NCBI RefSeq assembly: GCF_003334355.1
Contig: NZ_QOWP01000043.1
Strand: one strand, 5' to 3'
Length of the DNA: 26,147 nucleotides
Source: Escherichia coli
GTDB lineage: Bacteria; Pseudomonadota; Gammaproteobacteria; Enterobacterales; Enterobacteriaceae
Made by a program: the position numbers and the translations under genes. Below, in pieces: positions 675 through 2,210 of the stretch (its first letter is position 1; each line of letters opens with the position of its first letter). The notes beneath the pieces were generated by a model, which saw only the letters and a program-made list of their open reading frames with translations, searched no databases and was not told where the DNA came from.

Positions 675-1112
675 TCATATGTAACTTATTATTTTAGATA
701 AAGATTTCCAGTTAAAGAAAAAAGTTATCATTGATATAATCAAATATGCCCCTGCGAGTAGCAGGGCATAATAATCCAGAGGCAGATTGCTGACAACAGG
801 GGCAAACATCGAGATCATTGCTAATAGGCAGGCTGTGATCAGCGTAGTTCCTGTATCAAAAAGCCCCTCAATAATGCCTTTTAGTACTCCGTTACTTTTT
901 AGAGCGCCTACAATTCCCTTTGAACTATCAAAGCTACTTAGCATGGTGACTGATGCCAAAACAAAACCAAAGAGAACTCCAGAAATAGTTGAAAGAGCAC
1001 CAGCAGCCGAAATGACAGCATTGTGATCTAGGTCGTGTAAAAAATGGGCACCAGCAATAGCCATAGCTAGAGCAAACAATGACTTGGCAGCAAACAATTT
1101 CCGAGAACTCAT
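675..1112 (-). CDS. Small integral membrane protein (145 aa), unknown function; downstream gene of a two-gene cassette
   Basis: ORF from track. Translation is dominated by 3-4 hydrophobic helix-length segments (e.g. LFALAMAIAGAHFL, AVISAAGALSTISGVLFGFVLASVTML, LITACLLAMISMFAPVV, YYALLLAGAYLIISMITFFF). ATG at 1112..1110 is preceded by AGGAA 7 nt upstream and lies only 12 nt from the stop of the upstream gene. AT-rich codon usage unlike the pao genes. No family recognised. Confidence 0.6.
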   Translation of the reverse strand: MSSRKLFAAKSLFALAMAIAGAHFLHDLDHNAVISAAGALSTISGVLFGFVLASVTMLSSFDSSKGIVGALKSNGVLKGIIEGLFDTGTTLITACLLAMISMFAPVVSNLPLDYYALLLAGAYLIISMITFFFNWKSLSKIISYI

Positions 1113-1124
1113 AATGTATTCCTG

Positions 1125-2210
1125 TTACGTTTGACTAACCAAATAGTACTGGGTTAGATACCTAAGGTTGTCATTCTTTGCTTGTAGCATAGCATTTTTA
1201 ACGTCAGTATCGGTCGGATACCCATCTGCTTGGATAGGCACCATCTTCTTTACCGTAAGAACTTCGTCTACAAGACTTTTCTTCTTTTTATCGCCCTGAG
1301 CAACAACATTTGCTTTCTCAAAAGTTAAACGACCATCACCACCAGGGAACTTTTCTAGCATCTCCTTAAGGCTTTTTTTAACGTCATCCTCAAGCCATCC
1401 CTTTGCTTTTCTTTTTAATGGAGAATGTCCGCGTAACGAAATAGTCAGGTGGCTTGAACTGGTGCCTCTGATCATCTCAATCATCTGATTCGCGAACATT
1501 CCATCGAGTTGATACTGTGCGGCATTGAAGTTTCTTGGGATGGCCACAGAAATCTCGCAGCTTCTTAGATTGGATCCAGTTTCGAGTAGTTCTTTGATGC
1601 TTTCTTCTTTCCAAATGGCTTCAAAAGAAACAGGGACTCCGCGATCACTGGAGTTGAAAAGAAGGAAGGCTAAGTCACTATGGCGTGGACCTAAATGATT
1701 TAAAGACAATACTAGAATGTCTGTCTGAGGATAATAAATAAAGTATGTACGTTCTGAAAGAGTCTTTGCCCCGGCTAGAGGGATTTTCTCTTCCACCCAC
1801 TCTTTATCTGTAATATATGCCAGTGTTGCGCTTTTTCTTCTTCGAGACATGAATCCGAAGTAGGAGCCATCCTCGGGTGAGATGTCTAGAAAATGAATTT
1901 TAAGTTCTCTTTCACCAAAGTCTGCATAGTGGGTCATCTTGAAGTCTTTAGAACACCGATCATACAGATTTTTAAAGGCCTCTGCGGTTAACCCCTTGTT
2001 ACTAGTGCGAATATTCTCAGAGCTTGTGTAAAAGCCCACCCTTACAGATTTCAAACTTTGATCTTTTGGTGCCACAGTCATTTGAGCTCCATTGTACTCT
2101 GCGATAGTTTTTGCACACCTTGAAATCAAAATCTCCATGTCAGTCACGAGAAAATAACTATGGATGAAACCCATCAAAGGCATTGAATACAGGTGGCTTT
2201 TGAGAATCAT
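1125..2210 (-). CDS. Hypothetical soluble protein (361 aa), unknown function; upstream gene of the two-gene cassette
   Basis: Long uninterrupted ORF on the minus strand, AT-rich, charged/hydrophilic, lysine-rich C-terminal third. I looked for nucleotidyltransferase (GS...DxD), reverse-transcriptase (YxDD) and P-loop motifs and found none convincing. Start codon choice (2210 vs internal Met) is uncertain. Confidence 0.55.
   Translation of the reverse strand: MILKSHLYSMPLMGFIHSYFLVTDMEILISRCAKTIAEYNGAQMTVAPKDQSLKSVRVGFYTSSENIRTSNKGLTAEAFKNLYDRCSKDFKMTHYADFGERELKIHFLDISPEDGSYFGFMSRRRKSATLAYITDKEWVEEKIPLAGAKTLSERTYFIYYPQTDILVLSLNHLGPRHSDLAFLLFNSSDRGVPVSFEAIWKEESIKELLETGSNLRSCEISVAIPRNFNAAQYQLDGMFANQMIEMIRGTSSSHLTISLRGHSPLKRKAKGWLEDDVKKSLKEMLEKFPGGDGRLTFEKANVVAQGDKKKKSLVDEVLTVKKMVPIQADGYPTDTDVKNAMLQAKNDNLRYLTQYYLVSQT

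Follow-up and report, generated by a model that had tools for sequence, protein, structure and literature searches.

The two-gene cassette and the start of gene A

We analysed a two-gene cassette of the minus strand in a 26,147-nt stretch of the Escherichia coli chromosome (NZ_QOWP01000043.1; the whole stretch is hereafter called the window), part of the thrW tRNA-Thr island that adjoins paoABCD. The upstream gene, gene A, has a maximal open reading frame (ORF) of 361 aa (1125..2210) and codes for a soluble protein, and the downstream gene B (675..1112, 145 aa) codes for a small membrane protein. The TAA stop of gene A (1127-1125) and the ATG of gene B (1112) are 12 nt apart (caggaatacatt), with an AGGA 7 nt before the ATG. 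GC content over 600-2800 is 0.39-0.43 versus 0.58-0.62 in the pao genes. An earlier note on this DNA, made from the sequence alone, had described two minus-strand genes separated by 12 nt, the second with its own Shine-Dalgarno, within a horizontally acquired region richer in AT than the pao genes, and had predicted that the smaller product is a multi-pass membrane protein; the ORFs, the AGGA, the GC values and the four hydrophobic helices of the gene B product agree with this description.

The length of 361 aa given there for the first protein did not hold, being only that of the longest possible ORF. The start of gene A lies most likely at 2081 (M44 of the 361-aa ORF), which would give a protein of 318 aa, because several lines of comparison converge on it: the RefSeq annotation has 318 aa, M44 is the first aligned residue in the PHROG profile and in all gene A homologs, and GGAG (2090-2087), 5 nt before the ATG, fits as its Shine-Dalgarno. 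Among related loci (designated here by L numbers), the 91% identical L027 has an in-frame TAA four codons 5′ of this start and the 79% identical L033 has lost the upstream ATG of the long ORF. The 5′ extension shows no conservation in L031, and a conserved upstream leader ORF, also considered, was rejected since it is kept neither in L031 nor in L033. Coordinates are collected in Table 1.

Table 1. Features of the cassette and its surroundings, in window coordinates.
Feature	Position	Strand	Remarks
Gene A	1125..2081	-	318 aa; predicted cytoplasmic, RexA-like; diverged DUF6731 relative; RefSeq WP_001528727, annotated hypothetical
Gene B	675..1112	-	145 aa; WP_000098670; RexB-like inner-membrane protein with four predicted transmembrane helices; predicted effector
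A-B spacer, 12 nt	1113..1124	-	holds AGGA (1123-1120), putative ribosome-binding site of gene B
In-frame 5′ extension of gene A	2082..2210	-	gives the 361-aa ORF; probably 5′ untranslated region
Conserved upstream block	2207..2256	-	putative promoter or operator for genes A and B; conserved in 12 loci
Two terminator-like hairpins downstream of gene B	491..554	-	consensus matches only; not more numerous than in shuffled sequence
9-mer TGAACCAAC array	2562..2661		three tandem and two inverted copies; probably not part of the cassette
PerC-family regulator gene	2698..2979	+	divergent from gene A

Direct annotation searches

The earlier note had proposed profile searches of both proteins, a structure prediction with a fold search and a survey of homologs for conserved pairing, all of which were carried out. 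With profile hidden Markov models (HMMs), Pfam returned nothing significant for either protein, with no match to RexA (PF15969) or RexB (PF15968) at E ≤ 10, NCBIfam returned zero matches, and no PADLOC model, including those for RexA and RexB, matched either protein at E ≤ 1. The same PADLOC models (PDLC02339 and PDLC02340) do score the lambda proteins, at 9e-110 and 9e-61, respectively. A weak Pfam TubZ-like_C match (E 0.04-0.05) was taken as noise. When the gene A family profile was searched against the sequences of all PDB chains, 0 matches were found at E ≤ 10, and neither this search nor Pfam revealed a recognisable nuclease or enzyme domain in gene A.

CBASS, Pycsar and retron-2TM, which the earlier note had offered as comparators, found no backing in these searches: neither PADLOC nor Pfam gave a match, cyclase and reverse-transcriptase models included, and the predicted fold described below is RexA/RdgC-like rather than that of a nucleotidyltransferase or reverse transcriptase. 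Kiwa, which pairs the membrane protein KwaA with KwaB (DUF4868), was also rejected. The PADLOC library includes KwaA and KwaB models, no match to Kiwa was returned, and the gene order is opposite, the membrane gene coming first in Kiwa.

Gene families could nevertheless be assigned. The gene A protein matches phrog_7651 (E 3.6e-139) and the gene B protein phrog_8552 (E 3.6e-54), two PHROGs without assigned function. Homologs of gene A at 43-50% identity carry Pfam DUF6731 (PF20505), 39 of the 62 members of the gene A family alignment match this domain, and the cdtI-type relatives bear the RefSeq name 'DUF6731 family protein'; the window protein itself falls below the PF20505 threshold and gives no match. 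By transitive homology, gene A is best described as a diverged sister branch of DUF6731. The suggestion that it may be an unclassified family was thus half right, since the window protein escapes the HMM libraries and the PHROGs have no function, but its relatives are DUF6731. The family is small: of 1.84 billion cluster representatives, 44 matched at E < 1e-3. Our literature search returned no paper mentioning DUF6731 or PF20505.

The gene A product resembles RexA

An AlphaFold2 (AF2) model of the gene A product, built on the 62-sequence family alignment, has a predicted local distance difference test score (pLDDT) of 85 and a predicted template modelling score (pTM) of 0.73. Searched against the PDB with Foldseek, it returned lambda RexA (8TWQ) as the top match (E 4.6e-6, probability 1.00) and E. 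coli RdgC (PDB 2OWL) as the second (E 3.4e-4). Matches behind RexA comprise CHL4, IML3, CENP-N and RdgC, and three of these, RdgC, IML3 and CHL4, have been named as structural neighbours of RexA itself (PMC11077077). According to the model, the gene A product has the two-domain, RdgC-like fold of RexA.

Comparison of family profiles led to the same protein. The 62 gene A members aligned to 29 RexA sequences (PF15969) with 93.7% probability (E 1.9e-7) over 251 columns, which is almost full length, and the score of 56.7 compares with at most 20.9 for the reversed and 30 column-shuffled controls. Against the single sequence of lambda RexA, the gene A family profile reached only 18% probability (hhalign); for both gene A and gene B, the remote signal is clear only when both sides are family profiles. 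Within the alignment the invariant LGPxxSDL of the gene A family falls on FGPTTSDL of RexA, and a lysine-rich GDKKKK patch lies no more than 4 residues from RexA R219/K221, which RexA needs to bind DNA and to exclude T4 rII. The gene A product has an isoelectric point of 8.9 and its many invariant charged residues include R82, E110, D121, N128, D136, E167, R183, K235 and K239. As judged from the profiles, gene A shares sequence homology with the RexA family and, by analogy, its product is probably a dimeric, non-specific DNA-binding protein. Where the earlier note gave no recognised relatives, fold and profile comparison thus identified lambda RexA and RexB as remote ones.

The gene B product resembles RexB

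At 145 aa, the gene B product is nearly identical in length to RexB (144 aa). Its hydropathy profile has four segments placed as in RexB, the N-terminus, central loop and C-terminus are basic, and the central loop carries a near-invariant K72. The AF2 model consists of four long helices (pLDDT 82). The topology predicted is that of an inner-membrane protein with four transmembrane (TM) helices, both termini in the cytoplasm and, on the same side, a basic central loop.

A profile of 16 gene B sequences aligned by hhalign to one of six RexB sequences (including two close lambda relatives) with 79.7% probability (E 1.5e-5) over 89 columns, in register across TM1-TM3 and with a score of 37.7 (controls ≤ 16.5). 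Single sequences carried little of this: BLASTP against RexB gave nothing and hhalign of B against lambda RexB gave 6% probability. When the model was compared with predicted viral structures (BFVD), the best match was a 165-aa protein of Mycobacterium phage Sbash (probability 0.99, with a weak E of 0.03), most likely gp31 because this is the sole 165-aa CDS in the Sbash record. Sbash gp31 is a proven RexB-like effector with an essential central cytoplasmic loop (R70, D73; PMC6426596). These signals are each modest and mutually agreeing, and gene B looks like RexB.

With both resemblances in hand, the division of labour within the pair can be considered. Roles could be reversed, with A as the toxic effector and B sequestering or neutralising it until infection, similar to a toxin-antitoxin pair; Butters gp30/gp31 is a precedent for this arrangement (PMC12894663), and the many invariant charged residues of A could serve an activity beyond sensing. 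Yet the membrane protein is the effector in lambda and in three of the four other Rex-like systems described (PMC12894663), profile searches found no nuclease or enzyme domain in A, and its fold neighbours are DNA-binding scaffolds rather than enzymes. We therefore regard a reversal of roles as quite improbable, and the assignment of A as RexA-like sensor and B as RexB-like effector is the one retained below.

Occurrence and selection

The cassette is rare: of 5426 complete E. coli genomes, 42 carry it, ABU 83972 among them, always as a single chromosomal copy with at least 99.8% identity. At the DNA level this Rex-like family, not annotated before, reaches roughly 1-2% of complete E. coli genomes. 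Against a 91%-identical relative, the ratio of nonsynonymous to synonymous substitution rates (dN/dS) is 0.055 for gene A and 0.066 for gene B, which shows purifying selection on the two of them. Across 48 distinct pairs, A and B diverge in a correlated manner (r = 0.94).

These figures bear on one alternative, that the two genes are silent remnants of a decaying prophage and have no current function in the host. The decay itself is visible: the adjoining gp16 is truncated, an IS3-family element abuts the region, a sigma-70 consensus scan upstream of gene A yielded no promoter, and the cassette is present in no more than 0.8% of complete E. coli genomes. Inert cargo would nevertheless hardly be expected to keep both ORFs intact in 41 of the 42 carrier genomes, to show a dN/dS of about 0.06 or to retain a 50-nt upstream block across different flanks, and we consider this explanation very unlikely compared with a maintained, RexAB-like function.

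Pairing and genomic slots of the family

Related loci were located in IMG/VR with a 27-sequence alignment, which gave 80 loci at 39-100% identity. In 79 of them gene B directly follows gene A, the sole exception having a disrupted A, so that the conservation of pairing proposed for survey was found. The gene B homologs of these 79 loci measure 145-157 aa (E ≤ 1e-40) and start within about 70 nt of the A stop or slightly overlap it, mostly 3-20 nt after.

Several slots typical of morons are used. At 64 of the 80 loci the pair is antisense to late transcription, with the Q antiterminator on one side and the lysis genes on the other, as in phages cdtI and vB_EcoS-733R5. Elsewhere it sits directly downstream of a CI/S24 repressor gene on the same strand (lambdoid L010, where Kil, RecT and YqaJ follow; P2-like L006; and L039), a slot that genuine rexAB fills in L022-L024. 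In a Rahnella prophage it is flanked by DinI genes and the tail-fibre end. Throughout, the family is carried by prophages and constitutes an accessory 'moron' of temperate phages.

Position downstream of CI in some homologs raises the question of whether the pair mainly serves the life cycle of its own prophage, with exclusion secondary or absent: A would bias the lysis-lysogeny decision via DNA or repressor and B would modulate host proteolysis or the membrane state. Lambda RexA acts on the bistable switch independently of RexB (PMC11077077). On the other side, the 64 antisense loci between Q and the lysis genes are far from the immunity region, the pair also occurs beside the integrase of a non-tailed Vinavirales prophage, strict A-B pairing favours a joint function, and in the window the prophage is degraded yet both genes are intact and conserved. 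A role confined largely to the phage's own development thus appears unlikely, and exclusion of other phages by a RexAB-type pair remains the preferred function.

In genomes of the window type the cassette lies beyond gp7, gp20 and a truncated gp16, ejection genes of a P22-like prophage at thrW that is classed as a remnant because its gp16-family gene is truncated. P22 carries sieA just beyond its ejection-protein genes, and the small, predicted inner-membrane protein B occupies a comparable place, hence B could act as a SieA-like superinfection exclusion protein that, instead of aborting infections, keeps P22-like phages from delivering their DNA at the inner membrane. SieA, however, acts alone, whereas B is obligately paired with a RexA-fold protein; most carriers are lambdoid or non-tailed prophages rather than P22-like ones, and phrog_8552 has no exclusion annotation. 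We find this scenario hard to credit, much harder than a RexAB-type activity of the two proteins together.

Some further observations were made on these loci. The gp16-family ejection gene beside the cassette, C-terminally truncated, is located at 17202-19017 of L001. Positions 1-78 of the window are the end of an IS3-family (IS1203/IS629-like) element, with 23,388 matching places in E. coli genomes; other carrier genomes cease to match at position 79 or 215, which makes for a variable left junction. L003 (Vibrio phage 10N.286.54.F4_PE001) is a 14.6-kb Vinavirales prophage, non-tailed and PM2-like, with a Rex-like pair beside its integrase (1389-2896, 30% identical to gene A), and by this pair the family crosses between tailed and non-tailed phages. 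The gene A homolog of L004 (ON470608, vB_EcoS-733R5; 6001-6942) is labelled 'portal (connector) protein', almost certainly a mis-annotation given that the protein is DUF6731/RexA-like and lies between Q and the holin gene. In lambdoid L005 an Acb2/Tad1 hairpin-domain protein of the anti-CBASS/Thoeris sponge family (5792-6085) is found beside the lysis genes; this prophage also has a DUF6731 pair, so defence and counter-defence cargo occur in one phage.

A probable diverged RexAB-type exclusion module

Taking together the fold of A, the remote homologies, the topology of B, the conserved pairing, the selection on both genes, the prophage carriage and the location of some copies in the rexAB slot, we consider it probable that the two genes form a phage-exclusion (abortive infection) module of the RexAB type, highly diverged and carried as a moron by temperate phages. 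Each of the alternatives discussed above is less well supported. This reading also supports the view of the earlier note that a co-transcribed pair of a soluble and a small membrane protein has the layout of an abortive-infection system of the sensor plus membrane effector type.

By analogy with RexA, protein A would be the infection sensor, a cytoplasmic, probably dimeric and non-specific DNA binder with the RexA/RdgC-like fold. On the model of lambda RexAB, Sbash gp30/gp31, CarolAnn gp44/gp43 and P. putida RexABpp, A would be activated when a heterologous phage infects the cell, and activated A would trigger B to permeabilise or depolarise the inner membrane. The cell would then lose ATP and cease to grow, and the phage infection would abort. 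In this scheme we infer dimerisation, DNA binding, A-B interaction, depolarisation, the anti-phage phenotype and expression from a degraded prophage.

Several points weigh against this interpretation. Curated RexA and RexB HMMs fail to recognise either protein; the profile signal between B and RexB is moderate, and TM proteins are prone to spurious profile matches; the E value of the Sbash match is weak; and single-sequence hhalign against Sbash gp30 and gp31 gave no signal for either protein. Concerning its context, the window copy has no neighbouring repressor and resides in a remnant with a truncated gp16, an insertion sequence lies about 600 bp beyond gene B, and the sigma-70 consensus scan of the minus strand upstream of gene A detected no promoter. 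Lastly, roles outside defence are known for RexA and RexB, and Butters reverses the roles of its two proteins (PMC12894663).

A more specific proposal can be made only tentatively. The pair may represent a separate, hitherto unrecognised Rex-like clade that left the immunity operon, has its own conserved upstream control element (2207-2256) and occupies the antisense slot between Q and lysis genes in lambdoid phages, with further members in non-tailed Vinavirales prophages of Vibrio. If so, the trigger or activation logic could differ, for instance through late-gene antisense transcription or a Butters-type reversal, and an E. coli-tractable system would be available for studying how RexA-like sensors activate RexB-like channels.

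Comparison with described Rex-like systems

Like lambda RexAB (PF15969/PF15968, PDB 8TWQ), the cassette consists of adjacent, co-oriented genes, the first for a soluble protein (about 280-370 aa in systems of this type) and the second for a four-TM protein (about 145-165 aa). The differences are considerable: identity between gene A and lambda RexA is about 15%, the gene A product is some 40 aa longer, and most copies lie away from the immunity region, where RexAB-type pairs are typically co-transcribed with the repressor; the antisense slot between Q and lysis genes prevails, and the window copy is in a P22-like remnant. RexABpp of Pseudomonas putida prophage P1 (PP_5643/PP_5644; PMC12894663) belongs to pseudomonads and has two genes between it and the repressor; it was compared by description only. 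Sbash gp30/gp31, CarolAnn gp44/gp43 and Butters gp30/gp31 are likewise two-gene prophage defence modules with a four-TM effector. These actinobacteriophage systems differ in hosts and GC content, Sbash gp30 has 372 aa and Butters follows a reversed logic. RdgC (PDB 2OWL), a housekeeping recombination modulator without a membrane partner, is a much weaker match to gene A than RexA. The cassette belongs to phrog_7651 and phrog_8552 and is related to DUF6731 (PF20505); to none of these has a function been assigned.

Only five Rex-like systems have been described (PMC12894663), and the activation of RexB by RexA is still unexplained some 70 years after Benzer's rII experiments. The present comparisons link to RexAB a family (DUF6731 relatives, phrog_7651 and phrog_8552) that the HMMs of current defence finders miss and that spans many enterobacterial lambdoid prophages, including a cdt-converting phage. 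If this link is confirmed, the DUF6731 family and its unnamed membrane partner would gain a likely function, PADLOC and DefenseFinder would gain new models, and a second, highly diverged E. coli Rex system would be at hand in which sensing and channel activation can be compared.

Upstream block and neighbouring genes

The start of gene A at 2081 is preceded, at a distance of roughly 175-185 nt, by a block of about 50 nt. Its first part is a 26-nt element, CACTGATCATCCATCAGGATATGCGA (2256-2231), with a CTGAT-N5-ATCAG palindrome and a GATC site, and its second part is CCAGGTTAGGATGA (2220-2207) with an invariant TAGGAT. The block is present in 12 of the 12 loci of the subfamily (≥79% identity) despite unrelated flanks and absent from more distant loci. 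It is the leading candidate for promoter or operator function, although the sigma-70 consensus scan showed no promoter there. Rfam returned no match to it, nor any across window positions 1-5000.

Further upstream, TGAACCAAC occurs in tandem at 2634-2661 with 9-nt spacing and in inverted orientation at 2562 and 2583. An operator-like repeat array and a PerC-like regulator had both been pointed out just upstream of the cassette. The regulator gene is there, and so is the array, but the latter is on the perC side: it lies 36-135 nt from the perC ATG (2698) and at least about 480 nt from the start of the 318-aa gene, and more likely belongs to perC than serves the cassette as an operator. We keep it apart from the system for this proximity and because perC is adjacent in only some of the loci at ≥91% identity (present in L025-L028 and L036, absent from L029 and L030).

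PADLOC gave no match for PerC, a 61-aa ORF, the pRiA4b ORF-3 protein, a 119-aa ORF or the 146-aa ORF of L001. The pRiA4b ORF-3 family gene (3583-4125, +) and the gene of the 119-aa hypothetical protein (4118-4477, -) are convergent, their 3′ ends overlapping by 8 nt, and both accompany the cassette in E. coli loci L026 and L036. Beside paoD, a LysR-family fragment without its N-terminus (about 4740-5363, -), annotated by RefSeq as a pseudogene, marks the island boundary.

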